This document shows, piece after piece, positions 1,583 to 48,798 of a stretch of 64,000 nucleotides of DNA. Numbering within the stretch: the stretch's first letter is position 1; every line of letters begins with the position of its first letter. A program made the position numbers and the translations under genes. Source of the DNA: a virus (Duplodnaviria; Caudoviricetes); the IMG/VR virus record IMGVR_UViG_3300029288_000152, positions 1-64,000 of that record. One strand, given 5' to 3'. The notes below the pieces were generated by a model. That model was given only the letters and a program-made list of their open reading frames with translations, had not been told where the DNA came from and searched no databases.

Positions 1583-1810
1583 ATGTACTACTCGTTTCAA
1601 GGACGAAAGTTTACATCCACCCGAGGGGACTGCTACATCGATGTGGATGTGGATGCCCATGGGCTGGTGACGCAGGTGTGGGAGTGTGATGACTTTGGGG
1701 TGCGGAGGCCTAAGGGAGATGTCACCAAAGGTTGGGAGGGGGCATCGGTATCGGAGTACTGGCAACCCATCGCCCTGGACACCACATTGCAGTTGGATGA
1801 GGGCATTTGA
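1583..1810 (+). CDS. Small protein with DEGI tail (#1)
   Basis: Ends LDTTLQLDEGI*; SD upstream; TGATG overlap with the next ORF. Confidence 0.75.
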   Translation: MYYSFQGRKFTSTRGDCYIDVDVDAHGLVTQVWECDDFGVRRPKGDVTKGWEGASVSEYWQPIALDTTLQLDEGI

Positions 1811-4715: not shown

Positions 4716-4845
4716 AGGGTTTGGCTCGATGGGGTCTGCCGAATACACCGAATAAGGCAGGAGCGATGCCGTGGAGCGTCGGTTTTAAGGCCGCCATCGA
4801 GCCAATTCGCCCCGCCCACGGTTGGGCAGAAACAGGAGTGAGGGG

Positions 4846-5976
4846 ATGAACGTAATTACCACAGAGCCTGTCCCGATCAAAGTGTGGGCTGAGAACGTCG
4901 AGGACGGGGCACTCGCGCAGGCGCGGAATCTGGCCCATCTGCCCTCCGTCTACAAGTGGGTCGCCCTGATGCCCGACTGCCACGTTGGCTACGGGATGCC
5001 CATTGGTGGCGTGCTGGCCACGACTGGACTCATCATTCCGAACGCGGTCGGCGTGGACATCGGCTGTGGGATGGTGGCGGTGTTGTTCGATACGCCTCCT
5101 CCAGATACCGACGAACTCAAGCGGATCATGGGGATTGTGCGGAAGGAGATCCCGGTCGGCTTCGGGCATCACGGAGAGCCGCAGGCGTGGGACGGATTCG
5201 AGTGGGCACCGGATCTGCCGGTGATTCAACAGGAACTCGCCTCTGCCCGTAAGCAGTTGGGGACGCTTGGCGGGGGCAACCACTTCATTGAGTTCCAAGT
5301 AGACGACACCGGGAAGTTTGGCATCATGTTGCACTCTGGGAGCCGCAACTTCGGCCTGAAGGTCGCGGGCACGTATCACAAGATCGCCTCTGCGCTCTGC
5401 GAGCGGTGGCACGTGGTGTTGCCTGACAGCGAACTGGCGTATCTGCCGGTCGAGACACGGGAAGCACAGGACTACCTCGCCGCGATGAACTACGCGCTCG
5501 ACTTTGCCAAGGCCAACCGCGCACACATGATGCAGGCCGTACTGGACATCGTTGGGTTGGCTCCGGTCGATTCTGTCAACATCCATCACAACTACGCGGC
5601 GATTGAACACCACTTCGGGCGGAACGTCTGGGTCCACCGGAAGGGCGCGACTAGCGCACGGGTGGGGGAACGCGGCATCATCCCCGGTTCAATGGGGACC
5701 GCGAGTTACATCGTGGAGGGGCTTGGAAACCCTGCGAGCTTTACGTCCTGTTCACACGGGGCTGGTCGTCGTATGGGGCGCAAGCAGGCTTCGCGGACGC
5801 TGGATTTGACCGCAGAGCAGGCCAAGATGGCCGGTATTGTCCACGGACTACGAAACGCCTCTGACCTTGACGAGGCACCGGGAGCGTACAAGGACATCGA
5901 TGTCGTCATGGCCGCACAGCAAGATTTGGTCAGCATCGTGTCGAAACGACTACCGTTGGGCAGCATCAAGGGTTGA
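4846..5976 (+). CDS. rtcB: RtcB family RNA ligase
   Basis: MPDCHVGYGMPIGGV, VGVDIGCGM, LGTLGGGNHFIE, HSGSR, HHNYA, HRKGAT, PGSMGT, SCSHGAGR, DEAPGAYKDI. Confidence 0.95.
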   Translation: MNVITTEPVPIKVWAENVEDGALAQARNLAHLPSVYKWVALMPDCHVGYGMPIGGVLATTGLIIPNAVGVDIGCGMVAVLFDTPPPDTDELKRIMGIVRKEIPVGFGHHGEPQAWDGFEWAPDLPVIQQELASARKQLGTLGGGNHFIEFQVDDTGKFGIMLHSGSRNFGLKVAGTYHKIASALCERWHVVLPDSELAYLPVETREAQDYLAAMNYALDFAKANRAHMMQAVLDIVGLAPVDSVNIHHNYAAIEHHFGRNVWVHRKGATSARVGERGIIPGSMGTASYIVEGLGNPASFTSCSHGAGRRMGRKQASRTLDLTAEQAKMAGIVHGLRNASDLDEAPGAYKDIDVVMAAQQDLVSIVSKRLPLGSIKG

Positions 5977-6023: not shown

Positions 6024-6770
6024 ATGCAACATACCACAAGTCCCATCGTGCCATCGGGAGGGGTCCAATCCCCCCTGTTGCTGGCTGGACAAATCCAGCC
6101 GGGGGTGTTTCTGACGGGTGAGGCCGCCATCAATCTCTGGCAGGTGGATGGGTTGGAGGGTGAGGATCGGCTGCGGATGGTGAAGGTGCCCCGACCCGTG
6201 ATGGAAGCCGGACATGTTCACATGTTTGCCCCCGTGCCATCCAGCCGGGTGCAGGCGGTGGAGTGTCCGTGTGGGATGCGTGTTCAGCCCATCAATAGCT
6301 TCCTGCCGTCCAGAGGGGGATCGCCCCCCAAGGCGTATGTTGTGGCTCCACCTGATGGCAGTGAGATGCAGGTGCCAGATGAGTATGCCATCTATGGCTA
6401 TCTCCATGCCACGAGTGGGGCGCTGCAAAGTGTCGTGATGAAGCCCAATCACCAGTGGGCGGCGGCGATGCCCATCATCCCGGCCTTGCATGAACTGTGG
6501 CGGGTGCCGGAGGAGTTGCTCGCCTTGGTCGCGGGTGAGGTGGAGATGGAGATGGAGAATGAGGCAGATGCACCTGCTACCCTAACAGGCGCAACAGGCG
6601 CACCGAGATGGGCCACCCTCACAACAGGCGCAACCTTTCACTGGATCACTACCGATGGGACCACGCCTGGGACCACGACGATGGATCCCACACCAGTCGC
6701 ACTCGCTGATGATGACGACGATGACGATGAGGATGAGGACGAGGATGAAGACGGTGCCGAGGAAGGCTAA
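6024..6770 (+). CDS. Hypothetical protein with Thr-rich linker and poly-acidic tail, first gene of the Ubl cassette
   Basis: GGAG SD; ends ADDDDDDDEDEDEDEDGAEEG*. Confidence 0.65.
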   Translation: MQHTTSPIVPSGGVQSPLLLAGQIQPGVFLTGEAAINLWQVDGLEGEDRLRMVKVPRPVMEAGHVHMFAPVPSSRVQAVECPCGMRVQPINSFLPSRGGSPPKAYVVAPPDGSEMQVPDEYAIYGYLHATSGALQSVVMKPNHQWAAAMPIIPALHELWRVPEELLALVAGEVEMEMENEADAPATLTGATGAPRWATLTTGATFHWITTDGTTPGTTTMDPTPVALADDDDDDDEDEDEDEDGAEEG

Positions 6771-6839: not shown

Positions 6840-7049
6840 ATGGCTAGGCCGCTAAAAGTGTTCGTACCCGATAAGGTGAACCCCGTCATCGATCTGGAGA
6901 ACAGCAACATGACGGTGGAGGAAGCTCGCCGCGTGTGCGTGTCGGGTGGGTTCACGGCTGTTGAGAACGCGGATTACACGGAAACCGTCATCGGATCGAA
7001 CGGGCGTGAAATCCGGTTCAAGCGTGTCACCGGAGGCAACAAGGGCTAG
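6840..7049 (+). CDS. Ubiquitin-like small protein (PRTRC protein C-like), C-terminal Gly
   Basis: 69 aa; MTVEEARR...AVENAD...IRFKRVTGGNKG* resembles PRTRC-C Ubls that end in GxKG; GGAGG SD; adjacent to E2/JAB/E1. Confidence 0.75.
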   Translation: MARPLKVFVPDKVNPVIDLENSNMTVEEARRVCVSGGFTAVENADYTETVIGSNGREIRFKRVTGGNKG

Positions 7050-7105: not shown

Positions 7106-7348
7106 ATGCTGGAGAGGCATTGGCCCCTGTACGGAGGGATTATGGTCAGAGATGTGGATTGGCCGATGATTGCAGTGGCGGGTGAGATGGGGCTTGGGAG
7201 TTCGCGGACACTCATCAACCAGCTGTTGGGAGATGTCTCACTCCAAGATTTGATAGACACCATTCCCAGATCGGCAGGGCGGGGGATGCGCCTCACGCTA
7301 TCAGGTTGTCCTGAGGTATCCCTGCCATCGGATGAGGAAGGGGACTGA
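7106..7348 (+). CDS. Hypothetical protein within the Ubl cassette
   Basis: GGAGG SD; fills the gap in the operon. Confidence 0.45.
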   Translation: MLERHWPLYGGIMVRDVDWPMIAVAGEMGLGSSRTLINQLLGDVSLQDLIDTIPRSAGRGMRLTLSGCPEVSLPSDEEGD

Positions 7349-7349
7349 T

Positions 7350-7643
7350 ATGGCCACGGACCCGGAGCGGCGAGAGGTGGGGATCTTTACGACACAGGAA
7401 GCCGCCTGCTATGTGGAACCATCAGATGTGATCAAGGCCGCGATTGAGCGGGAGGCGCGGATGCGTGGAGTGATTCCCTTCGCCCTGCTCTCGCAGCTCG
7501 TCGTCCTGAAGATTCTCGCGCCTCAGGAGAGTGCAAGGGTGCGGATCTACCCGCACACTGAGGCTGTCAAGATGCTGGAGAGGATTCGGAGCAAGCTGAT
7601 TCACCACTACTATGCGGCCCAGTTTCATCGGGAGAGGAGCTAA
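7350..7643 (+). CDS. Hypothetical protein within the Ubl cassette
   Basis: SD and tight packing before the E2 gene. Confidence 0.55.
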   Translation: MATDPERREVGIFTTQEAACYVEPSDVIKAAIEREARMRGVIPFALLSQLVVLKILAPQESARVRIYPHTEAVKMLERIRSKLIHHYYAAQFHRERS

Positions 7644-7645
7644 TC

Positions 7646-8326
7646 ATGTCGACGCCGACTGAGGTGCAGATCAATCACGACACCGGCCTGTGCCGCATCA
7701 CTGAGGGGGAGGCGCGGCGGGTGTTCTACACGACGACTGATGCGGTGGGGTTGAGGATGCTGGGCTTGACTGCACCCAGCCATACCGCCAATCTCCCCTG
7801 GATGGACTGTCTCGCCACGCGGGGGATGGCGATTGGGATGCGCGGGGATTCCACCTTTGTCCTCTGGACGGTGATGCCCACATCCCGTCAACTCACCTGG
7901 CGGCGTCATGGGGAATCCCACGATCTGACCATCACCTTCCCACCCCTCCTGTTTGGGTTGAAGTTCCATCATGGGTCTCTGGGGCGATCATCCCTCTATG
8001 TCATCAAGCCGGGATTAGAGCGGCGGTTGAGCGTGGATCTGCGGGATCCCGTCCTCTGCCCCTTCCCGTATGGGAATGTGTACGATCATGGTGGCATCTG
8101 CTGGGGGGAGATCAATCTGCGAGACATCCATCAGCCCCAAGAGGCGGAGGATGCCTTCTTCCAGTCGGGGTTCAATGGGGATCTGTTCTATGGCGCGTCC
8201 ATCGGCGCACGGGAAGCCACCCTCCCGGAGGTGATGAGACGGATTGGGGCGGTTCCTGTACCTCCTCCTGTGAATGGCCACTACCGGTCATCGGTGCAGG
8301 GGATGGTCACGAGTCTGGGGAGGTAA
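7646..8326 (+). CDS. Prokaryotic E2-fold protein (Prok-E2_D / PRTRC protein B-like)
   Basis: FPPLLFG...PFPYGNVYDHGGICWG: PxxNV...GxICxG with a putative catalytic Cys; operon context. Confidence 0.75.
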   Translation: MSTPTEVQINHDTGLCRITEGEARRVFYTTTDAVGLRMLGLTAPSHTANLPWMDCLATRGMAIGMRGDSTFVLWTVMPTSRQLTWRRHGESHDLTITFPPLLFGLKFHHGSLGRSSLYVIKPGLERRLSVDLRDPVLCPFPYGNVYDHGGICWGEINLRDIHQPQEAEDAFFQSGFNGDLFYGASIGAREATLPEVMRRIGAVPVPPPVNGHYRSSVQGMVTSLGR

Positions 8327-8328
8327 GC

Positions 8329-9687
8329 ATGTTGCTAAGATGCCTCCAATGCGATCACGTCGGGGAAGTCATGAGTGTCATTCCCGTCCGGAATGGACGG
8401 CTGATCCAGTTGGACTGTGGCCACACATCCACCTATGATGTGGGGATCAATGCCATGCCACGTGAGTATGAATGGGAAGATGAGGAGGAGCCAGACATGG
8501 GGAAGCATGTACCGTGGTTGACCGCGATCTGCCGCAGTTGCGGCTCGAAGTTCATGCCCGTCCCGGATGATGCCCGGCGGGAGTTCTGCCCGATTTGCCG
8601 AGAGGACTTGGGCATCCATACGGGGGAGGATGCGGTGGAGTTCCTGCGCCTGTATGACAAGGGAGCTATTACTGCTGTGACCCAAGCCGAGCGGCGAGCG
8701 TTGAAGGGGAAGGTCGTGCCCATCAAGGCCGCTGAACCTGTCAATCCAGAGGTAGTGGCTGAGGCGGTCAAGCAGCTCATCGATTACCAAGTCGCCCCCT
8801 TCACCGAGTTTGCGAAGCCCATCACGTACGTCATGTACAAGAATGGCCTGTTCGAGGTGCGGCACTCTGACCTCGCGACGGTCTATGTCGAGACCAAGGA
8901 CGTGCTGGGACTGGATACCATCTGTCGCCCCGGCATCCACCTCAACCTGCCCAAGGTGCCGTTGGAGATGCTGAAGCAAACCATCTCCTTCTTTAGAGGA
9001 GTGTGCCAGCGGCAGAATAGCTCATCCGAGGCGTTGGTGCAAATCTGGTGGGACCGGCAAGACAAGCGGCACTTCCTCTACATCCCTGAGCAGCAGGCCA
9101 GTGGAGGGAGTGTCAAGCCGACGAGTTGTTTTGACCAGGATGTGGATGGGCGATGGCTACGGGTGGGGGATATCCATTCCCACGGCACGGCGATGTCTGC
9201 ACACTTCTCTGGGATTGACAATGCTGATGAGGAAAGTATCACGACGGAGCGCATCTTTGGGGTGATTGGCAAGGTCGCGCAACCCATCCCGGAATGGGAC
9301 TGGCGGATGCGCACCCGAGGGGGGTTCATTCCCCTTAATGTGGTGGACATCTTTGACATCCCCACCCAAGACTTCACCTTCACTATCACATCTGAACGGC
9401 TGTTCAAGTCGATCAATGACAAGACGGCGTTCAAGGATGGACAGGTGGTGCTGTCCTGCCCGGTCGATCCCTTCACCGATGTGGAGATTCCTGAGGAATG
9501 GTATGCTCGTGTCAAGGGCTGGACGGCAGGACATGGACAGGGACACTTCTGGGACAAGGATCGCACCCCGGCGATGATGAAGGGGTATGTCTTTATTAAC
9601 GGGGAGGAATACATGGTAGAGGATTACAAGATGACTCCTACCGGCCATCGTCTGGTGAAGAAAGGTGAGGTTACTATCCATGGCTGA
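8329..9687 (+). CDS. JAB/MPN+ metallo-isopeptidase (PRTRC protein A-like) with N-terminal zinc ribbons
   Basis: SEALVQIWW...GDIHSHGTAMSAHFSGIDNADE (E...HxH...S..D); N-terminal CxxC pairs CLQC, CRSC, CPIC. Confidence 0.8.
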   Translation: MLLRCLQCDHVGEVMSVIPVRNGRLIQLDCGHTSTYDVGINAMPREYEWEDEEEPDMGKHVPWLTAICRSCGSKFMPVPDDARREFCPICREDLGIHTGEDAVEFLRLYDKGAITAVTQAERRALKGKVVPIKAAEPVNPEVVAEAVKQLIDYQVAPFTEFAKPITYVMYKNGLFEVRHSDLATVYVETKDVLGLDTICRPGIHLNLPKVPLEMLKQTISFFRGVCQRQNSSSEALVQIWWDRQDKRHFLYIPEQQASGGSVKPTSCFDQDVDGRWLRVGDIHSHGTAMSAHFSGIDNADEESITTERIFGVIGKVAQPIPEWDWRMRTRGGFIPLNVVDIFDIPTQDFTFTITSERLFKSINDKTAFKDGQVVLSCPVDPFTDVEIPEEWYARVKGWTAGHGQGHFWDKDRTPAMMKGYVFINGEEYMVEDYKMTPTGHRLVKKGEVTIHG

Positions 9688-10519
9688 GAGTGAATTGTTA
9701 CCGCTCGTCACATCGCATCACCAAGCCACCCATCCCATTCGCTTTGTCGTGGTGGGGGCAGGAGGCACAGGTGGACGCCTCATCCCCCCTCTCATGCAGG
9801 TGGTGCGGCGTGGAGACTCCGTGGCGATTGTGGATGGGGATCACGTGGAGGATCGCAACCTCGCCCGACAGAACTTCCGGGCACGGGACATTGGCGCGAA
9901 TAAGGCCGAGGTGATGACGCAACGCTATCGGCGGGATGGGATCGCCATGGATGCGTATGCCGCGATGCTAAGTGATGTCTCATGGCGGGAGATCATGGCG
10001 GGGCAGGAGGGGGCACCTCCGGGTGGGGTGATTGTGCTGGGGTGTGTGGACAACGCGCTAGCGCGTCAGACGATGCAGCGGATGACCAATGTCCATGCCT
10101 CCATCTGGATCGATGGCGGCAACGAGACGCGAGGGGGGCAAGTGATTCTCTCGGCGCGGGATTGGCCCTTCACCGTCAAGGATCCTCCCCGACGGGGGCG
10201 GACGACCTGGAAGGAAGCCGCTGGACCCATCAGCATCCGTGGCATGGATGCGATGCCGCAACTCCTGACGGCTCAACCAGATGCGGGGGGTGCGGGCTGT
10301 GCGGATCGGTTGGATCTGCAAACCGTGGCGGTCAATCAGATGAGTGCCACCTGCATGCTCAACGCGCTCACCTGTATCCTCTACAAGGTGCCCTTCTCAT
10401 CCTGTGGGGTGTTCTTCAGCACCCTTAACTCGATGAGTCCGATCAACCTGAAGCGGGTGGATTGGGATACCGCGTCCATCCTACCGGACATGACCTATGC
10501 CAGCCCCAGCACGGCTTAG
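9680..10519 (+). CDS. ThiF/E1-like adenylating enzyme
   Basis: VVVGAGGTGG, DGDHVEDRNLARQNF, IGANKAEV, GCVDNALAR, WIDGGNE, GCADR. Confidence 0.9.
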   Translation: MAESELLPLVTSHHQATHPIRFVVVGAGGTGGRLIPPLMQVVRRGDSVAIVDGDHVEDRNLARQNFRARDIGANKAEVMTQRYRRDGIAMDAYAAMLSDVSWREIMAGQEGAPPGGVIVLGCVDNALARQTMQRMTNVHASIWIDGGNETRGGQVILSARDWPFTVKDPPRRGRTTWKEAAGPISIRGMDAMPQLLTAQPDAGGAGCADRLDLQTVAVNQMSATCMLNALTCILYKVPFSSCGVFFSTLNSMSPINLKRVDWDTASILPDMTYASPSTA

Positions 10520-10733
10520 AACCTTCAGGGTCAAGGATGATCTTCCCCAAGATGCCCGAGTGTGGCAGTTTGGGCCAGGAGCGCGGAACCATCCTCGGGG
10601 AGATTTCTATCTAGGGGGCGCGTATAGCGGGATCTCGTACTTCCGCTCGATTCATGCCTTGAAGGAGACGTGGAAGGATGGCGTGGAGGAAGTCATGCCG
10701 GATCCTGATCTGGAATTGGATGAGGGCATATGA
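10497..10733 (+). CDS. Small protein with DEGI tail (#2)
   Basis: Ends EEVMPDPDLELDEGI*; overlaps the E1 stop by 23 nt. Confidence 0.7.
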   Translation: MPAPARLRTFRVKDDLPQDARVWQFGPGARNHPRGDFYLGGAYSGISYFRSIHALKETWKDGVEEVMPDPDLELDEGI

Positions 10734-10933
10734 TAGAACAAGGACATCCACGAGTCTTTCACTGGGAGGATGAGGAGTGGCAGGTCTGGCCTGATCATAT
10801 CATCTGGTCCAAGATCGGATTGAATCCTCGCCCATCTCGATTTAAGTCATTTGATGCGTTCTGGTACGAGATGGGACACTTGGTTCGAGAAGTGACTGTA
10901 GATCCGGATCTTGAACTCGACGAGGGTATATGA
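10730..10933 (+). CDS. Small protein with DEGI tail (#3)
   Basis: Ends REVTVDPDLELDEGI*; ATGA overlap. Confidence 0.75.
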   Translation: MIEQGHPRVFHWEDEEWQVWPDHIIWSKIGLNPRPSRFKSFDAFWYEMGHLVREVTVDPDLELDEGI

Positions 10934-11142
10934 TACCACGCACCTTCGAGGATCGGCACGGTGGGCGATGGATGTATGGGGATGGGACTCGGAATCCTCA
11001 GGGGGACTACTACTATATGGGGGTGTACCGAGAAGCCGCTGGCCCATCTTTAGCGTACATGCTAGATCACATCCAACGTCCTACTACAGGATTCAGGGAA
11101 GTCACCATCGATCCCGACCTGATGTTAGATGAGGGCGTATGA
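10930..11142 (+). CDS. Small protein with DEGV tail (#4), paralog of #2
   Basis: Ends REVTIDPDLMLDEGV*; shares WxxGxGxRN(H)PxGDxYxG with #2. Confidence 0.75.
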   Translation: MIPRTFEDRHGGRWMYGDGTRNPQGDYYYMGVYREAAGPSLAYMLDHIQRPTTGFREVTIDPDLMLDEGV

Positions 11143-11396
11143 CCAAATACGATGAGGACACGCTCGCTCGTCTCCAGCATCGGGCCATCGAGCTGACGCA
11201 GGCCCGAGGCCATCTCCTGGGGCGATGGGAATCGGCCAAGAAGAAGCATGGGGTGGGGGCCAAGCGGGTCATTTGTACCATCTGTGGGTTGGGCCTGACC
11301 ATCATGCCCAAACATCAGTTTAAGAAGGGACATGTCCCGGCGATGAAGGGGGATGCCTTGTTTGCAGATTGCACAGAGATGACACAGAGGCATTGA
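11139..11396 (+). CDS. Hypothetical protein with CxxC, no DEGI tail
   Basis: ATGA overlap; CTICG. Confidence 0.6.
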   Translation: MTKYDEDTLARLQHRAIELTQARGHLLGRWESAKKKHGVGAKRVICTICGLGLTIMPKHQFKKGHVPAMKGDALFADCTEMTQRH

Positions 11397-11397
11397 A

Positions 11398-11625
11398 ATG
11401 ATTCGATGGTATGTCCGGGGCATCAGTTCGGGATGGGCTGGGGTGGTGGAGTGGCATCCTGACCTCCTGGAGAAGAACTGCTACTACTTCCCTCGCTGGC
11501 CTGATCAGCGGGGTGTGACACGATTCTCGAAATCGGCCAGTGGGGTCCGGGATGCCGTGGAGTGTGGGGCATGGCGAGAGGCTCCAGAAATGTGTCCGGA
11601 CCTGATGTTGGATGCGGGCATATGA
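11398..11625 (+). CDS. Small protein with DAGI tail (#5)
   Basis: Ends WREAPEMCPDLMLDAGI*. Confidence 0.75.
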   Translation: MIRWYVRGISSGWAGVVEWHPDLLEKNCYYFPRWPDQRGVTRFSKSASGVRDAVECGAWREAPEMCPDLMLDAGI

Positions 11626-11834
11626 TTGCCAATCCTCGACTGGGATGGCGGTATTTTCAGTGTCCCTTCCCTGGTCCCTTTAGCCACTGGGCGTGGGATC
11701 CCGTTGATCAGAAGGGCTACTGGCTCAAGACCAGCACGGGCGAGTACTGTCATTCTTATCTCAGCGTAGATAGTTGGCAAAATGATGTCGAGGAGATCAT
11801 CGATCAGGATCTCATGTTGGACGCAGGCATCTAG
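11622..11834 (+). CDS. Small protein with DAGI tail (#6)
   Basis: Ends EEIIDQDLMLDAGI*; ATG at 11622 overlaps the previous stop. Confidence 0.75.
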   Translation: MIANPRLGWRYFQCPFPGPFSHWAWDPVDQKGYWLKTSTGEYCHSYLSVDSWQNDVEEIIDQDLMLDAGI

Positions 11835-11843
11835 GAGGCGATT

Positions 11844-12155
11844 GTGCTACAGACATTCATTCGATCCGAGTGGAAGGAATCCCCCAAGGATGAGGTGGAC
11901 ATCAAGATGCTCACCCAAGCCATGGGTGAGGCCCATATCCGGCGCTACTTCCCCTACAAGGGCACCATGCTGGAGAATTGTCTCGCCTATGGCCTGAAGA
12001 AGGGGGATGCGGTGCCCTATGCCAGAACCCGGCATGAAGTCAATACCTTCCCGATTCAGATCCTCTCCATTGGCTTGCCGAAGGGGGCGAAGTGTGATAG
12101 CACCCCTCATGTCTTTGCCATGAAGAGCAGTGAGATTCAGGTCATGGAAGTGTGA
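11844..12155 (+). CDS. Hypothetical protein
   Basis: AGGAGG SD followed by a GTG start. Confidence 0.6.
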   Translation: MLQTFIRSEWKESPKDEVDIKMLTQAMGEAHIRRYFPYKGTMLENCLAYGLKKGDAVPYARTRHEVNTFPIQILSIGLPKGAKCDSTPHVFAMKSSEIQVMEV

Positions 12156-12156
12156 G

Positions 12157-12393
12157 ATGCCGAACATCCGCTACTTTAAGGCTGGACAGGATGCCTTGTG
12201 GGACGGGGTGATTGAAGCGATCCCGCAACCAGATGGAGAGTATCGTTGCATCCAGTATGGGCACTGGCCGGATCGCTCTCCGGCGTATCTCCCATTTCCG
12301 GCCACAGCATACGAACTAGATGAGGCCGTCAGATCACGGAATTGGCAGGAAGCCATCGTTGATCCGGACTTACTCTTGGATGAGGGCATATGA
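12157..12393 (+). CDS. Small protein with DEGI tail (#7)
   Basis: Ends WQEAIVDPDLLLDEGI*. Confidence 0.75.
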   Translation: MPNIRYFKAGQDALWDGVIEAIPQPDGEYRCIQYGHWPDRSPAYLPFPATAYELDEAVRSRNWQEAIVDPDLLLDEGI

Positions 12394-12602
12394 TCCGCAC
12401 CTTCAGACCGGGACCGGATGCCTACTGGCGTGGGGTACTCACCGTGGATGATGATCCTCATGCTTCACGGTCATACCTACTCGATGGTGAGGTTATTCGC
12501 CATAGCCATAAGTCTCAGACTGAACTCATCCATCACAATGTCAGCACGAACTGGTGGATTGAAATCATTGACAAGGATCTCGAACTGGATGCAGGCATCT
12601 AG
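12390..12602 (+). CDS. Small protein with DAGI tail (#8)
   Basis: Ends WIEIIDKDLELDAGI*; N-terminus IRxFxxGxDAxWxGV shared with #7. Confidence 0.75.
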   Translation: MIRTFRPGPDAYWRGVLTVDDDPHASRSYLLDGEVIRHSHKSQTELIHHNVSTNWWIEIIDKDLELDAGI

Positions 12603-13664: not shown

Positions 13665-14618
13665 TCATTTCACCCGAACCGCTTGAGCCGGTTGAGGTTC
13701 CGGCTGTGTCACCTTGATTTTGGGTTCAACGGTAGAAATGGCGCGGCGAATCGCGGACATGCAGGCCTCCTCCGACTTATGCACAAGGGGAGCCAGCGCT
13801 CGCGCCTTAGCCCGCATGGAGACCAAGGCAGGATTCGTGAGGATGGTGTGGAGATGCTGTCCCATATCCTCAGGATCCGGCTCCCAGAGGAGCACCCCGT
13901 CAACATCTTGACGGAGGAGTTTGATGTCGCCTTCTTCGATGGATCGCCCCCCATAGTAGAGGCGATTCTTGGTGAGGCGCATAATGGCATCCATGCGATC
14001 CGTGACATAGGATGCGCCCCGGTGGTCGGCCATCAAATTCTTGTCTGTATCCGGCACTGGTTTGCGGCTGTGCGAAATGATGATCAACGCCGCTGGATGG
14101 GTGGCCCCCACGAGATTGACGATGACGTTCTTCATGATCGTGTTGGAATTCTCATCTCCTGAATGGGATTCTCGCAAGGTATCCACAATGACGGCTAGGG
14201 CATGATGGTCGTGGACAAGGCTGTAGAGATGTGACATGTGGGTGGGATCGAGGATATCGAAGGGATACTTCTCTAGGCACTCCCGATCAGCCACTCGGAA
14301 GTGCTCATCTACGAACGGGTAGCCGTGTGCGATGATCTTCTCAAAGCGTGTAGCAAATGTGGATCTGGGGGTGTCGAGTTGTAGATACAGCACAACTCCA
14401 TGTTGGATGACGCCAAATCCCATCCACTCATCCCGTCCACCCGACAGCGCTGCGGCGAGTTGGAGGGCGAGACTCGTCTTGCCCAGCTTGGCGGCACCAT
14501 GAAGGATGGCGACCCCAGATACCGGGAGGAGGGGTTTTACCAGCCAAACTTCTTTGTCTCTAGGGAGTTGCAGGTATTGGGATATGGGTAAGAAGCCTGG
14601 GTGTTGAGATGAGGGCAT
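13665..14618 (-). CDS. RecA-fold AAA ATPase (AAA_25 / RepA-like helicase)
   Basis: Walker A GAAKLGKT, YLQLD, Walker B VIVDTL, IISHSRK. Confidence 0.8.
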   Translation of the reverse strand: MPSSQHPGFLPISQYLQLPRDKEVWLVKPLLPVSGVAILHGAAKLGKTSLALQLAAALSGGRDEWMGFGVIQHGVVLYLQLDTPRSTFATRFEKIIAHGYPFVDEHFRVADRECLEKYPFDILDPTHMSHLYSLVHDHHALAVIVDTLRESHSGDENSNTIMKNVIVNLVGATHPAALIIISHSRKPVPDTDKNLMADHRGASYVTDRMDAIMRLTKNRLYYGGRSIEEGDIKLLRQDVDGVLLWEPDPEDMGQHLHTILTNPALVSMRAKARALAPLVHKSEEACMSAIRRAISTVEPKIKVTQPEPQPAQAVRVK

Positions 14619-14755: not shown

Positions 14756-15046
14756 ATGGCATCGAACGTGGTCTACATGGTGCGGGAGCGTGGGGGGCGG
14801 CATGGCCGCAAGGTGTGGCATGAGTATGTTGAGGTGGATCCCACCGCTCGCACGACGTATCGGGTGCAGGCCAAGTTGAAGCCGCGCAAGGTGATGCATC
14901 GGATCTACTGGCGGGGAAGTGCGTCATACGAAGCCCCACATGGGGAGACCAGCGATCAATGGCTGGTGCGGGCGATGGAGAGCATGGCGGACTCGGGCTA
15001 TCAGCCATGGTATCCCAAGTGGATGCAGATAGATGAGGGGATTTGA
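14756..15046 (+). CDS. Small protein with DEGI tail (#9)
   Basis: Ends WMQIDEGI*; GGAGG SD. Confidence 0.7.
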   Translation: MASNVVYMVRERGGRHGRKVWHEYVEVDPTARTTYRVQAKLKPRKVMHRIYWRGSASYEAPHGETSDQWLVRAMESMADSGYQPWYPKWMQIDEGI

Positions 15047-15047
15047 G

Positions 15048-15254
15048 ATGACTGGCAACTTTGGGCTAGAGACCGAGAACAGATGGTGGGTGGCACGGCA
15101 GGAACTTGGCGATGAGTACCATCGATCACTAGAAGCCTTTCTAGCCGAGTTGAGGAACTTGAGGTTCCCCGTCTATACTGTCACAACAGGCATCCATGAT
15201 AGCGTATGTGTAACGCTGGTGGATCCAGACCTGTATCTCGATGAGGGCATTTAG
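15048..15254 (+). CDS. Small protein with DEGI tail (#10)
   Basis: Ends VTLVDPDLYLDEGI*. Confidence 0.75.
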   Translation: MTGNFGLETENRWWVARQELGDEYHRSLEAFLAELRNLRFPVYTVTTGIHDSVCVTLVDPDLYLDEGI

Positions 15255-15263
15255 GAGGATCAG

Positions 15264-15467
15264 ATGAAGACGTACTTCCGCATCTACCACCGAGATGGTA
15301 CGTATCGGATCGCCGCACAGCCATGGTTTTGGCCCTTCTACACATGGATCTCAACCCGTGACTACTCCTCGCTTGAGCGAGCAATTGTGGAGCGTGATGG
15401 CTACCAACGCCGATGCGTGCCTTGGAAGCCGGTGATCGAAGCCGAACCTTTGGATTCAGGCATTTGA
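15264..15467 (+). CDS. Small protein with DSGI tail (#11)
   Basis: Ends IEAEPLDSGI*; AGGAGG SD. Confidence 0.7.
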   Translation: MKTYFRIYHRDGTYRIAAQPWFWPFYTWISTRDYSSLERAIVERDGYQRRCVPWKPVIEAEPLDSGI

Positions 15468-18228: not shown

Positions 18229-18477
18229 TTGAGGTGCGATGTGTATAAGATCATCATCGACAGACTGGCTGAGAATCCCAACTATGCTGAAGAGCGAACG
18301 CGCTGGCTTAACAGTCAAGCACAGCAGCCGTATGGGATCACTGGGTATAACCCTGAACCGTTACGTATGGTTCCTGTCAGAGCACTAGAAATGGATCTCA
18401 CAGAGGGCGAATTCAATGCGGTGAGACAAGCCGTACTGCAATTCATGGACACGGAACGGTTGGATGGAGGAATTTGA
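18229..18477 (+). CDS. Small protein ending LDGGI (possible DEGI-tail variant #17)
   Basis: Ends TERLDGGI*; TTG start is uncertain. Confidence 0.5.
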   Translation: MRCDVYKIIIDRLAENPNYAEERTRWLNSQAQQPYGITGYNPEPLRMVPVRALEMDLTEGEFNAVRQAVLQFMDTERLDGGI

Positions 18478-18489
18478 GCTTGCCGATTA

Positions 18490-19060
18490 TAGGGCTGACA
18501 AAACAGCAGGAGCTGCACAAGTACTGCTGACAAATCAGCCGCCCGTGCAGGGGAAACCGGGGAGTTACATGAACCCTCGGCGGCATCTTTTTGAGGTTGT
18601 GGTGGCTGTGACTCCGACAGGAGTTCCAAATGGTGGCGCTGCTGAGGGTTACTGTGGGGTTTGAGTCCCGCACACTGTCAGCAGGATAGCGGAGATGGAT
18701 GGGGCTGCGACCACGGCTGAAGGCCCCACCAGCCACCACATTGAGTTGTGGGAGATCGAGAGCATAAAGGTTCCAAGGGTACTTCCGGGATGGCTAATGT
18801 GACTTCCTGGACAAAACCCTGCAGGTTAACCTTGGTCGCCAGTCCCGATGAGGGCCGGTCTCCCATCAGAGTTGAGAGGTCCAGACATGGGTGCGGGTAG
18901 TAAGCTGATTAGAGTCCCTGAACCGTCATCAGGCTTCCAGCGTGCTGGAAGAACCTGCACGTGTCATTACTCGAAAGGCTGAACGCCAAGATCGCCAGCC
19001 CCATGACTAATCACACCCGGCTACGGCTGGGTGCGTGGGGTTAACGGCTCCCTGTTGGGC
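18490..19060 (+). ncRNA. Candidate large structured non-coding RNA (family unassigned; strand assumed from flanking genes)
   Basis: About 570 nt with no convincing ORF and many helices: 18598-18608/18730-18740 (11 bp), 18749-18757/18857-18865, 18784-18790/18805-18811, 18820-18827/18952-18959, 18906-18912/19007-19013, 18934-18940/18945-18951, and a c(UACG)g hairpin at 19014-19033. Confidence 0.6.
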
Positions 19061-19083
19061 CTCTCTTTGGATTGTGAAATGAC

Positions 19084-23525: not shown

Positions 23526-23729
23526 ATGGGCAACGTGTTCATCAACTCCATCGTAGCTGGCAGGAGGGCTGGGAAGTCGTGTATGTTGATGTTACTGGAA
23601 GCAGATAGACGATATACCGATCAATGCACTCCCCAAAAACTGGCGGACTGGGCATCCGATTGGTGTCGCTATAGCATCATGCAGCAGCACTGCACCGATC
23701 CTGAACTGTACTTAGATGAAGGGATATAA
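23526..23729 (+). CDS. Small protein with DEGI tail (#12)
   Basis: Ends CTDPELYLDEGI*. Confidence 0.7.
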   Translation: MGNVFINSIVAGRRAGKSCMLMLLEADRRYTDQCTPQKLADWASDWCRYSIMQQHCTDPELYLDEGI

Positions 23730-47433: not shown

Positions 47434-48798
47434 TCACGTGATCACATAACCGATAAAGCCTCGAAGGTTGGTAAAGGTATCGACCTCCGTGAAGGTCGTG
47501 CCATCCGTTGAACGCAGGATAATGCCATCGCTGTCTGGATCGGTGGCTCCGGCTCCATCCGTCTCGGCAATGACCAAGTAGACTGCTGAACTGTCAGGCG
47601 CAAGGATTCCCTGTCCCAGTAAGTGCTGTGTGCGACTAGCTCCCAGTGTAGCCAATGTATAGACAGTGCTCCACGCCGAACCAGTGAATTTCCTCACTGT
47701 GATTCGGCTGGCCGTAGCCGCTGAGTCATCATAGCGCAGGGCAAAGAGGTTGGCCCCAAACACCGTCAAGCCTGAGTAGTGCGAGTAGCCCGCACCCGTG
47801 TTCCCCCCGTTGTCACTGACGGTATAGGCTCCTGCCGAGGATCGCACGTAACAGCGGACAGGACTCCCAATCGTGTCCACCCGGCATCCCACATAGAGCA
47901 AGCCCTTATAGCTCGCCATGCTGGAGACCACTTGATTGGCCGTCAAGGTCTCATCATCGGTCCATGAGGTATCCACCCCCGGACGGATGTAGTAGACATG
48001 GCCAGATTGCGATCCGGCATTGAGATAGGATGTCCCTGCCCAGAGCGAACCGGCATGAGAGGTCAGTGCCCAGACCACGCCTCCACTAAACTCCGTGGCC
48101 GCCACCGCTGCCGTGTAGCCAATCTGCTTGATGGCTCCCGTGACCGGATCGAACTCAAAGACCCGGCTATTGAGCAGGGGAGCCGCTCCCCCATCGAGCG
48201 TGGAGAAGTAGAGCTTGTTATCGTGCAAGCACATGGCGATGATGGCTTGCGCCGTCGTGGTGGCTCCCACGGCAATGTTCTTAGGGGCATAGCCTACAAC
48301 GGAATCAGTCGTCCCATCCCAGCAATGGATAGTGGGATCTGAGTAGCTCGCCGTGGGGTAGACAACGTAATCACTGCCCGCATAGTAGAGCTTGTTCTTG
48401 AAGCTCACCATCGCAGCGTTGCTGATCACGCCCGTGGTCTGGTTGCTGGATGCGAACTGCGACTTGACAGGAGCCGTCGTGTTGCTGGCCCATGTCGTAC
48501 CATTGGTCGATGTGCGCCACAGGGTGGACTTACCCGTGTCAATGCCAGCATAGAGCGTGACGGTCGGCGTATAGGCAAAGGGGAGATTGATCGCGCCCTT
48601 GACTGTCCCTCCACTCGCAAAGGCGGTCGAGTTCAGCTTGGCTAGTCCATCGCGCTTCCGCAGCGTTCCGGCCTCACCCAGATCGTCTGCGACGGCATTC
48701 TGGGCCTTGGTCAGTTCCTGAGGACTCAGATGGACGGCGCTCTTGACGACGTTGACACCCTTCGTGCCCAAGCCGTAGAGATCGATTTTCCCGCCCAT
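47434..48798 (-). CDS. Virion protein: stabilisation-like N-terminus plus beta-propeller
   Basis: GVNVVKS...ELTKAQN...LRKRDG N-terminus; repeated LY[AFV] blades and S-T-D/N-G-T-T-W/F boxes. Confidence 0.6.
   Translation of the reverse strand: MGGKIDLYGLGTKGVNVVKSAVHLSPQELTKAQNAVADDLGEAGTLRKRDGLAKLNSTAFASGGTVKGAINLPFAYTPTVTLYAGIDTGKSTLWRTSTNGTTWASNTTAPVKSQFASSNQTTGVISNAAMVSFKNKLYYAGSDYVVYPTASYSDPTIHCWDGTTDSVVGYAPKNIAVGATTTAQAIIAMCLHDNKLYFSTLDGGAAPLLNSRVFEFDPVTGAIKQIGYTAAVAATEFSGGVVWALTSHAGSLWAGTSYLNAGSQSGHVYYIRPGVDTSWTDDETLTANQVVSSMASYKGLLYVGCRVDTIGSPVRCYVRSSAGAYTVSDNGGNTGAGYSHYSGLTVFGANLFALRYDDSAATASRITVRKFTGSAWSTVYTLATLGASRTQHLLGQGILAPDSSAVYLVIAETDGAGATDPDSDGIILRSTDGTTFTEVDTFTNLRGFIGYVIT

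Follow-up and report, generated by a model that had tools for sequence, protein, structure and literature searches.

A shared C-terminal tail on small phage proteins and its link to a ubiquitin-like cassette

Twenty small ORFs of a 74.5-kb phage genome, all on the + strand and encoding proteins of 54–103 aa, end in a common tail with the consensus (D)P(D/E)LxLD[EASG]G[I/V]-stop, here called the tag. A link between the tag and a cassette encoding a ubiquitin-like protein (Ubl), an E2-like protein, a JAB protease and an E1-like enzyme is well supported, and the two are probably functionally coupled. In the likeliest form of this coupling, the tail would make each tagged protein a pro-substrate of the cassette, to be trimmed, activated and conjugated; we give this full route slightly less than an even chance. 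If it is true, many reversible binders among the early proteins would become covalent modifiers. A literature search found no paper on such a tag/cassette system.

The tag and its spread over the genome

Seven tagged ORFs lie downstream of the E1 gene within positions 10497–12602 (Table 1), the first sharing 23 nt with the 3' end of that gene, in agreement with the preliminary description of this cluster. The fixed penultimate Gly and single following aliphatic residue noted there are likewise borne out, as all seven end in D-[E/A]-G-[I/V]-stop, with the lead-in [D/C]-[P/Q/K]-D-L-x-L in 7/7. Ten more tagged ORFs are found elsewhere in the window (the whole stretch of 64,000 nt that was analysed) and three past its end, at genome positions 70814–71041, 71041–71289 and 73523–73741, making the observation larger than first noted. 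Over the whole genome, 21 frames of at least 40 aa end in D-x-G-[IV], one of which (47968–48342) is probably spurious, whereas 200 codon-shuffled genomes had 0.39 such frames on average and never more than three. Tagged genes are distributed across the whole early gene block, and their earlier portrayal as a local appendage of the cassette was wrong in detail.

Table 1 Cassette genes, tagged ORFs and interspersed untagged ORFs in the window.
Feature	Position	Strand	Length (aa)	C-terminus or remark
T01	1583..1810	+	75	...LQLDEGI
Protein with poly-Asp/Glu tail	6024..6770	+	248	first gene of cassette block
Ubl, Prok_Ub / PRTRC protein C-like	6840..7049	+	69	...RVTGGNKG-stop
ORF between Ubl and E2	7106..7348	+	80	no family match
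ORF between Ubl and E2	7332..7643	+	103	no family match
E2-like (Prok-E2_D / PRTRC_B-like)	7646..8326	+		conserved Cys in G-I-C-W-G
JAB/JAMM metalloprotease, predicted	8329..9687	+	452	N-terminal Cys-rich zinc-ribbon-like module, C-terminal extension
E1-like adenylating enzyme (ThiF family, PRTRC_ThiF-like), predicted	9665..10519	+		
T02	10497..10733	+	78	...DPDLELDEGI; ATG at 10497, overlaps E1 stop
T03	10730..10933	+	67	...DPDLELDEGI
T04	10930..11142	+	70	...DPDLMLDEGV; paralog of T02
Untagged ORF amid the seven	11139–11396			
T05	11398..11625	+	75	...CPDLMLDAGI
T06	11622..11834	+	70	...DQDLMLDAGI; length from ATG 11622
Untagged ORF amid the seven	11844–12155			
T07	12157..12393	+	78	...DPDLLLDEGI
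T08	12390..12602	+	70	...DKDLELDAGI
T09	14756..15046	+		...MQIDEGI; start uncertain
T10	15048..15254	+	68	...DPDLYLDEGI
T11	15264..15467	+	67	...EPLDSGI
T12	18241..18477	+	78	...ERLDGGI
T13	23526..23729	+	67	...DPELYLDEGI
T14	25916..26227	+	103	...DPDLYIDEGI
T15	26224..26511	+	95	...TYGLDEGI
T16	26512..26718	+	68	...ELDDEGI
T17	27153..27317	+	54	...DPELFLDEGI

The peptide itself could be functionless and its shared end arise from signals at gene junctions (a GAGG ribosome-binding site together with an ATG/TGA overlap), from a DNA repeat or from the common origin of paralogs. At about 11 of the 20 junctions, GAG GGN ATA TGA does also provide the next gene with its GAGG and ATG, and some tagged ORFs are paralogous, but other tags have no abutting downstream gene, and the tagged bodies collected here and in relatives fall into about 80 families unrelated in sequence. 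Pairwise comparison of 13 long-form tags gives a nucleotide identity of 0.82 for codon positions 1+2 as opposed to 0.43 for position 3; moreover, Leu is spelled in six ways and each of the three stop codons occurs. Because synonymous codons vary among tags, selection acts on the peptide. In the related contig L035 position -3 is free while the Gly and the last residue are fixed. Codon-position identities, Leu and stop codon variety and the L035 pattern largely exclude this explanation, which we accord next to no weight.

The cassette and its co-occurrence with the tag

The gene order of the cassette (Ubl, small ORFs, E2_D, JAB, ThiF) is that of the PRTRC cassettes of plasmids and conjugative elements (TIGR03735–TIGR03738; Prok_Ub, Prok-E2_D, Prok-JAB, ThiF), and PRTRC models are the best family matches of the phage E1, E2 and JAB, all below NCBIfam cut-offs. 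E1 scored 49.3 bits against Pfam ThiF (cut-off 28.1) and E 1.8e-23 against TIGR03736, with the GxGGxG motif and two Cys invariant in alignment A3, while the E2-like protein scored 29.8 bits against Pfam PF14460 (cut-off 25) and E 2e-5 against TIGR03737, its Cys being kept in 12/12 aligned cassettes. JAB matched the Prok-JAB (E 1.3e-3) and PRTRC_A (E 6.6e-10) profiles, has an H-S-H...S-G-x-D motif invariant in its alignment, and gave an AF2 model (pLDDT 70.5) that resembles Rpn11, BilC, AMSH and Cap3 (Foldseek E down to 5e-6). Judged by sequence, the catalytic motifs of both E2 and JAB are intact. The Ubl gave no match in a direct Pfam search and a weak one to Prok_Ub by hhalign (P 0.002); it is alignable end to end with eight related phage Ubls and the canonical PRTRC Prok_Ub, its top cluster in an ESM Atlas structure search was 'PRTRC system protein C' (TM 0.68), and it ends, like PRTRC protein C, in ...G-x-K-G. 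The phage cassette differs from PRTRC in being phage-borne, in lacking ParB and in the extra N-terminal Cys-rich module of its JAB, and the one canonical PRTRC locus examined has no tagged small proteins. A literature search found no paper giving the function of PRTRC. The 248-aa protein, with no Pfam or NCBIfam match, occupies the PRTRC_E slot of the canonical locus, and ORFs of like size fill the slot of the 80-aa ORF in L030.

Between 9 and 32 tagged ORFs occur in each of eight other contigs whose E1 belongs to the same clade (35–63% identity; L028, L030, L032, L033, L034, L035, L037 and L101). These counts refer to the 13–21 kb fetched per relative, whereas the 20 reported here refer to a whole genome. 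The phages of this clade are uncultivated, and their contigs reach about 78 kb. In L032 the T02 family also lies directly 3' of E1, and the T11 ortholog ends in EPLDEGI.

The Ubl/E2/JAB/E1 cassette was present in 9/9 genomes or contigs with tagged ORFs and enough flanking DNA, and five DNA-polymerase relatives (two complete) had neither ThiF/E1 nor tags. Among 60 IMG/VR loci with ThiF relatives the tag was absent from 59, the sole tagged locus falling inside the E1 clade. Four related cassettes (L100, L102, L103 and PRTRC) lack tags, and the enzymes therefore do not need tagged proteins. Scanning IMG/VR by tag pattern, a weak search, returned only that sole tagged, E1-bearing contig or a chance match and no tag-bearing genome shown to be without a cassette; the 10-kb tag-bearing contig L104 has no E1 in the roughly 6 kb upstream of its AAA_25 gene, where the contig ends. 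With one exception, the tag-bearing relatives were retrieved via their own E1, so that the search presupposed an E1, and, as the E1 tree is poorly resolved and the sample phylogenetically clustered, a single origin in one clade may account for the co-occurrence. The preliminary description had proposed the tagged proteins as pro-substrates of the cassette, an idea supported in part: the association which it predicts came out favourably, both in the 9/9 and in the tagless state of the cassette-less relatives. Related phages with many tagged ORFs and no E1/E2/JAB, the contrary pattern, did not appear in the same weak search.

Each genome has its own version of the tag (LDEGI, MDxGL, LDEGL, VPEGL, LPEGF, LPxG[VI] or LTEGL), the general form being hydrophobic-x-hydrophobic-[D/P/T]-x-Gly-hydrophobic-COOH, with alternating hydrophobic residues at -7, -5 and -1. 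Every tagged ORF collected (about 150 gene ends from 10 sequences) has Gly at -2 and finishes in a hydrophobic residue, and no real gene among them ends in the tag minus its last residue. Tags evolve in concert within each genome: one body family takes on the local version (DLGL/DNGL in L028/L030, LPEGF in L034/L037), and all tags of a genome therefore track one shared partner.

That partner could have nothing to do with the cassette, tag and cassette being merely inherited by one phage clade. Candidates would be a host hub or protease, with the tail as a C-terminal degron setting when early proteins are turned over, or else a machine of the phage, for example in capsid loading. The tag-bearing genomes may indeed be a single clade, in which tag variants could track different hosts, and both the tagless cassettes and the spread of tags over the early block, not just beside the cassette, suit this explanation. 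Nevertheless, we consider it quite unlikely, given that the association persists to 35% E1 identity in genomes whose AAA_25 proteins are down to 21% identical, that tagged ORFs separate E2 from JAB within the cassettes of L028, L030, L033, L035 and L101, that the IMG/VR scans, weak as they were, gave no tag-bearing contig without E1, and that the tag end mirrors that of the pro-Ubl.

C-terminal ends and the proposed route

In the route that we infer, from JAB cleavage of the tags and E1 acceptance of the trimmed tags to E2 transfer and the kind of target reached, JAB would take off the single last residue, as required for the pro-Ubl in most relatives, and so bare the C-terminal Gly of the tagged protein. 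E1 would adenylate this Gly and hand the protein to the E2 Cys, and the small protein would then be joined by its C-terminus to lysines of a host or phage protein bound by its variable body. Two features fit such chemistry, namely the pro-form Ubl ends and the Lys depletion of the tagged proteins.

Lys-Gly is invariant near the end of the cassette Ubl family in alignment. The canonical PRTRC Ubl stops there, and nothing follows in the Ubls of G000, L034 and L037; the residues after Lys-Gly in the other phage Ubls are L, I, F, L, L, L, C or EA. This pro-form occurs in 8/11 phage cassettes, in 6/8 of the tag-bearing cassettes with a Ubl gene on the fetched DNA and in 3/3 tagless phage cassettes. 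Because most phage Ubls extend past Lys-Gly, a peptidase cutting after the Gly is needed. The neighbours of the Gly differ, being D/P/T at -4 and mostly E at -3 in tags and T/N/S then K in the Ubl, and one E1 pocket would therefore have to take both. In ubiquitin, Leu71 and Leu73 precede Gly76, and the hydrophobic residues of a trimmed tag, at -6 and -4 from the terminal Gly, presumably reproduce this spacing. Tags always have a final hydrophobic residue, specific to each genome, which the Ubl may lack, and the two share its identity in only about 3/5 comparable genomes. An obligatory end residue of this kind suits an anchor for binding, with its carboxylate free, no less than it suits a leaving group.

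The tail could accordingly be a docking peptide for a cassette component, such as the N-terminal zinc-ribbon module of JAB, or the E2, without itself being activated, the Ubl being the sole modifier. Tagged proteins would then be adaptors that steer the Ubl machinery to body-bound targets, as E3-like substrate receptors do, or else regulators or clients of JAB. Co-occurrence and concerted evolution within each genome suit any shared phage-encoded receptor, and the -7, -5, -1 pattern with its obligatory last hydrophobic residue resembles a strand-addition ligand anchored at its C-terminus. The N-terminal JAB module (FCxxCR..FGI.T.EDA) is present in 8/8 tag-bearing and 0/4 tagless cassettes, although this correlation is confounded by phylogeny. 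As docking leaves unexplained both the invariant Gly at -2 and the copying of the Gly-plus-residue form of the pro-Ubl by the tag end, we regard it as rather unlikely, if a serious contender.

Lys makes up 2.6% of tagged bodies and 4.2% of small ORFs without a tag at these loci, a depletion seen in 8/8 genomes (p = 9e-5) with Arg unchanged. Low Lys is expected of proteins barred from conjugating to themselves, as the pro-substrate route would have it, and also suits docking adaptors that escape modification. Counting against the route, E1 enzymes normally read the globular Ubl body too, and the tagged bodies are diverse and, where modelled, not beta-grasp. The AF2 model of T08 has the order strand-strand-strand-strand-helix-strand with a low-confidence tail and gave no match in a PDB fold search, and no ubiquitin-like look-alike of T07 was found in the ESM Atlas.

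The E1-like enzyme MccB recognises a short peptide (MccA) and not a folded Ubl, and the JAMM enzyme QbsD prepares the carrier QbsE for E1-like activation by removing residues beyond its Gly-Gly. Both pairs are metabolic, serving a peptide antibiotic and sulfur transfer, respectively, and differ from the phage system in that each has one substrate and is not known to include an E2 or to conjugate proteins. In the BilABCD system of E. aridi, the JAB peptidase BilC, whose structure (8tyx_B) the phage JAB model matches, removes the single residue after the reactive Gly of the Ubl, cleaving between Gly97 and Ala98 (PMC10557695); Bil differs in relying on a single beta-grasp Ubl, in the CYS domain of its E1 and in having no family of tagged non-Ubl proteins.

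Since a Gly-ended tail resembles the substrates of Bil and CBASS enzymes, the tags might be decoys that occupy a host E1/E2/JAB of the Bil or type II CBASS kind, as the preliminary description offered for an alternative. We find this very improbable: a decoy needs neither 20–40 different bodies nor restriction to phages with their own cassette, and a cap residue after the Gly makes a poor decoy for E1. Returning to the pro-substrate reading, a precedent is type II CBASS, in which Cap2 conjugates cGAS, a protein of non-ubiquitin fold, via a C-terminal Gly or Ala whose conservation is limited to operons with Cap2 and Cap3 (PMC10097602); for the phage a similar reaction is proposed. Type II CBASS is a bacterial defence with one substrate per operon, an E1-E2 fusion and an uncapped terminal Gly or Ala, whereas the phage-borne system has separate E1 and E2 and 20–40 candidate substrates per genome, all with capped ends.

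Distribution and selection of the C-terminal tag

As claimed in the preliminary description, the first tagged open reading frame (ORF), which ends DPDLELDEGI, overlaps the stop codon of the E1 gene, and six more ends of the same type follow by position 12602. The tag did not hold up as a local feature beside E1, since 17 tagged ORFs are spread across the window and three more lie beyond it in the same genome. All 20 are on the plus strand, encode 54–103 amino acids and end in D-[E/A/S/G]-G-[I/V], and in 13 of them this end is preceded by a longer lead-in, (D)P(D/E)LxL. Codon-shuffled genomes contained such frames at a mean of 0.39 and a maximum of 3. One further frame of 124 codons, opposite the minus-strand structural genes, has no lead-in before its MDSGI end; it is probably there by chance and not as a 21st tagged gene.

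Nucleotide identity among the tags was 0.43 at the third codon position versus 0.82 at positions 1 and 2, and codon use was varied (six codons for Leu, three to four for Gly, all three stop codons), indicating selection on the peptide and not on the DNA. In GAG-GGN-ATA-TGA, present at about half of the junctions, the codons double as GAGG and ATG for the gene that follows, which may add a constraint on the Glu codon but cannot account for the tail. It is hardly credible that the shared end is an artefact of such junctions or of paralogy. A DNA-level repeat or a pure ribosome-binding-site origin was excluded by the codon analysis and by position -3, which is free in one relative, L035. Many unrelated early proteins share this tail, which is a genuine peptide signal under strong selection.

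E1 has many metagenomic homologs on phage-size contigs, and each such contig studied, to as low as 35% identity, has a series of small ORFs whose tails follow the same design in a wording of the contig's own. Several loci also have tagged ORFs between E2 and JAB. Of the plus-strand genes called, 20/83 are tagged in this genome, and in the stretches fetched from relatives the share runs from about one third to 60%.

Tagged ORFs and tail wording in relatives
Contig	Tagged ORFs	Tail wording
L032	9	LDEGI
L028	~17	[LM]DxGL
L030	~18-21	LDEGL or VDEGI
L033	~12	[VM][PS]EGL
L034	~12	LPEGF
L037	~19	LPEGF
L035	~32	LPxG[VI]
L101	11	LTEGL

Across the genomes the tail keeps a hydrophobic residue at -7, at -5 and at the very end, one of D, P or T at -4, and Gly at -2. 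Exactly one residue follows the Gly in all tagged ORFs gathered, and none of the real genes in the tagged loci collected has a tail that stops short of it; judged from sequence, the tagged proteins thus have a C-terminal Gly that trimming could expose. The largest family of tagged proteins, with the core C[ST]R..GH.G.H[VI]A, ends in DLGL or DNGL in L028 and L030 and in LPEGF in L034 and L037. One body family therefore carries the local tail of each genome, which implies that tails within a genome evolve in concert and, in turn, that they share one partner per genome.

The cassette and its association with the tag

The IMG/VR record of this genome (74,474 bp) is rated complete by CheckV, and the window covers its bases 1–64000. 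Its early and replication block lies on the plus strand and encodes RtcB, a PD-(D/E)XK nuclease, a Sak4-like protein and a family A DNA polymerase, with an AAA_25 ATPase gene on the opposite strand, and its structural block (terminase, portal, major head and internal virion proteins) lies on the minus strand. In the region matching that of RtcB, L028 has instead an RNA_ligase-family gene and a NAMPT/NAPRTase gene. The AAA_25 gene occupies the same place in most fetched relatives and is absent from the stretches of L035 and L101; its identity falls to 21% between subgroups in which E1 is still at least 55% identical.

Features of the genome and of fetched contigs (window positions unless another record is named)
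Feature	Position	Strand	Observation
RtcB RNA ligase	4822-5976		full-length (Pfam E 3e-108), just upstream of cassette
Ubl	6840-7049	+	69 aa, ends GGNKG
E2	7646-8326	+	Cys in G-I-C-W-G
JAB	8329-9687	+	452 aa
JAB N-terminal module	8329-8700	+	JAB residues 1-125; two CxxC pairs, then FGI.T.EDA helices
E1	9665-10519	+	ThiF-type
Tagged ORFs T02-T08	10497-12602	+	3' of E1
AAA_25 ATPase	13665-14618	-	inside plus-strand early block
Gap after tagged ORF T12	18478-19080		~600 bases, gene-free
Tagged ORF T15	26224-26511	+	paired Cys motifs
Frame ending MDSGI	47968-48342	+	124 codons
Tagged ORFs T18/T19	genome 70814-71289 (beyond window); L002 1306-1781	+	paralogs; each with CxxC...CxxC zinc-ribbon-like N-terminus
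C[ST]R..GH.G.H[VI]A family	L034 11155-12552; L037 11536-13629; L028 2659-2913; L030 12083-12304
265-aa protein with Ubl-like end	L102 5844-6641		ends ...TGTKG + EA

The cassette is a tight run of seven co-oriented genes at 6.0–10.5 kb, encoding in order an acidic-tailed 248-aa protein, the Ubl, two small ORFs, E2, JAB and E1. This gene order is that of the canonical PRTRC locus fetched for comparison; the phage differs in having no match to ParB_N anywhere in the 74.5-kb genome, and hence no linked ParB, and in its NCBIfam scores, as E2, JAB and E1 match PRTRC_B, PRTRC_A and PRTRC_ThiF best, each under its cut-off. E1 scored 83.1 bits against PRTRC_ThiF (TIGR03736; cut-off 144.75) and 49.3 bits against Pfam ThiF (cut-off 28.1), and is, by these scores, a distant relative of PRTRC_ThiF and no equivalog. 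E2 exceeded the cut-off for Prok-E2_D (PF14460; 29.8 versus 25 bits) and its Cys is invariant in 12/12 cassettes. The sequence score of JAB lies below the Pfam cut-off (19.1 versus 25), but its metal motif, HxH...S..D, is invariant and its AlphaFold2 (AF2) model matches Rpn11, BilC, AMSH and Cap3 (E 5e-6 to 7e-4), which together identify a JAB/JAMM peptidase with an intact metal site. The model confirms the fold and says nothing on tail binding. The 69-aa protein has no Pfam match and aligned weakly with Prok_Ub in hhalign (P 0.002); it appears Prok_Ub-like through its end-to-end alignment with the family, its invariant K-G terminus and its best structure match in the Atlas, a PRTRC protein C cluster (TM 0.68), profile evidence being weak.

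The co-occurrence of tag and cassette, which had been proposed as a check, was borne out, in that the genomes with tags form a subset of those with a cassette, and the searches described below turned up no genome with tags but no cassette. Tagless cassettes exist in L100, L103 and L102 (E1 identities of 34%, 35% and 31%) and in the canonical PRTRC locus, L097, and the tag is absent from 59 of 60 IMG/VR loci with ThiF relatives. A search for relatives of the DNA polymerase (47–60% identity) found six IMG/VR contigs; five of these, including two complete ones, were read over their whole length and had no ThiF gene and no enriched C-terminal motif. Tag-first scans of IMG/VR records other than this genome, in three tag wordings, returned only the contig of L037 and one chance match. 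A metagenome scan yielded one true tagged ORF, on the 1.3-kb contig L027, and a tagged-family search three further tagged proteins, including those of a 10-kb tag-bearing contig, L104, which has no E1 on it and ends about where E1 would lie; both contigs are too short to reveal whether their genomes have E1. Among 5.8 billion proteins, a profile built from 19 tagged ones matched none but those of the phage itself, and a profile of 58 tails found one unrelated repeat protein among 1.84 billion representatives; as short tails cannot reach significance, these searches are no census of the tag. Relatives independent of E1 were also sought through AAA_25, with an alignment that proved too divergent, and a single-protein search of IMG/VR found nothing. 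An E1 profile search of genome contigs gave one weak match, without tags, and no prophage or host clue. One apparent homolog without a tag, from relatives that lack the cassette, was dropped, as the match to the tagged protein was 43 residues within a 476-aa capsid-like protein.

The tag-bearing genomes sampled are clustered phylogenetically, and the tree of E1, with tagless L100 on a long branch, is too poorly resolved for counting independent gains or losses, so that the co-occurrence may equal few independent events. It would then be conceivable that the tail addresses an unrelated host or phage factor and the cassette is merely co-inherited, a reading we consider improbable: the co-occurrence persists while E1 has diverged to 35% identity and AAA_25 to 21%. 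The tails might also be decoys of host enzymes, a far more remote explanation in our judgement. We consider it probable that the tail is functionally coupled to the PRTRC-like Ubl/E2/JAB/E1 cassette.

Bodies of the tagged proteins

Once the tail is removed, the proteins of this genome are mostly unrelated, with detectable paralogs only among T02/T04, T05/T07/T08 and T18/T19, and no Pfam domain in any of them. A single paralog family was excluded, as 121–139 tagged bodies fell into 81 clusters with BLAST and 82 with jackhmmer. Tagged proteins had no profile similarity to the Ubl. The AF2 model of T08 (pLDDT 70.5, tail disordered) has four strands, a helix and a strand, an order other than the beta-grasp, and no PDB match in Foldseek, and no neighbour of T07 in the Atlas is ubiquitin-like; for these two of some 80 tagged families, recognition by E1 would need to rest on the tail alone.

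Lys makes up 2.6% of tagged bodies versus 4.2% of untagged small ORFs (8/8 genomes, p = 9e-5), and Arg is unchanged. Such depletion is expected of proteins activated for transfer to lysines, or needing to escape modification, and argues against the tagged proteins as targets. Trp is about twice as frequent in tagged bodies as in untagged small ORFs (3.8% versus 1.9%, p = 3e-13, all eight genomes), and many have a G-x-W-x-hydrophobic stretch directly before the tail. The C[ST]R..GH.G.H[VI]A family has 11 members, six of them tandem copies in L037, and its conserved core is possibly a metal site.

A putative conjugation route

The Ubl family ends in an invariant Lys-Gly, at which the canonical PRTRC Ubl stops. 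Phage Ubls carry beyond it one residue (L, I, F or C), two (EA) or none (this genome, L034 and L037), so that for most of these phages trimming behind the Gly is a necessity. The tag, a Gly with one residue after it, has the form of the capped Ubls. Ubiquitin has Leu71 and Leu73 at -6/-4-type spacing before its terminal Gly, and the tail without its last residue would similarly present hydrophobic residues at -6 and -4 from the Gly. BilC, a JAB enzyme, trims its Ubl in just this manner, one residue before the end (PMC10557695), and the E1/E2 of CBASS conjugates a non-ubiquitin protein via a conserved terminal Gly (PMC10097602). In addition, the JAB proteins of all eight tag-bearing genomes, and of 0/4 tagless cassettes, have an N-terminal Cys-rich module, FCxxCR..FGI.T.EDA, which is a candidate tail reader, a correlation confounded by descent.

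The most economical mechanism is that of the preliminary description itself, in which JAB would remove the last residue of a tagged protein and E1 and E2 would conjugate the protein through the exposed Gly, and we hold it with slightly more doubt than belief. A little more tentative is the wider model of a phage-borne multiplexed system, in which each genome would supply dozens of unrelated capped pro-modifiers, each to be fixed covalently to the host protein recognised by its own body, so that the modifier, and not an E3, would choose the target. Several observations run counter to the full conjugation route: the tagged bodies examined are not beta-grasp, the residues beside the Gly differ between tags and Ubl, and the last residue, which the Ubl can do without, is required in every tag. 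The latter would also fit a last residue that acts as a binding anchor, with the tail in a docking or adaptor role for the cassette enzymes, which we regard as unlikely, albeit the foremost alternative to conjugation.

Bacterial ubiquitin-type systems serve mainly in anti-phage defence and, to our knowledge, systems of this type work with one modifier or few. Here a phage lineage brings such enzymes together with 20–40 unrelated small proteins that share a modifier-like capped Gly end, concerted in each genome. If the proposed chemistry were true, this would be the first conjugation system with many different proteins as modifiers and a new route of viral host takeover, in which early proteins become covalently fixed to their targets; the uncharacterised PRTRC-like enzyme family would gain a function, a large part of the early genes that are now hypothetical in these phages would gain a role, and enzyme-driven protein ligation could draw on a short tag of natural origin. 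As a mere docking signal, too, a tag on about one fifth to more than half of the early-region plus-strand genes is unreported, and we found no description of it, or of a phage PRTRC-like cassette, in the literature.

A parallel is type II CBASS, where a C-terminal Gly of the conjugated protein is conserved only alongside E1/E2/JAB, as the tags are found only with the cassette. This is an analogy and not membership, as Cap2 is an E1-E2 fusion whereas E2 and E1 of the phage are separate, with JAB between them. L102, which is a distant phage with a cassette, has its Ubl-like end on a 265-aa protein, and the Ubl may, from its sequence, be fused there to a larger N-terminal part.
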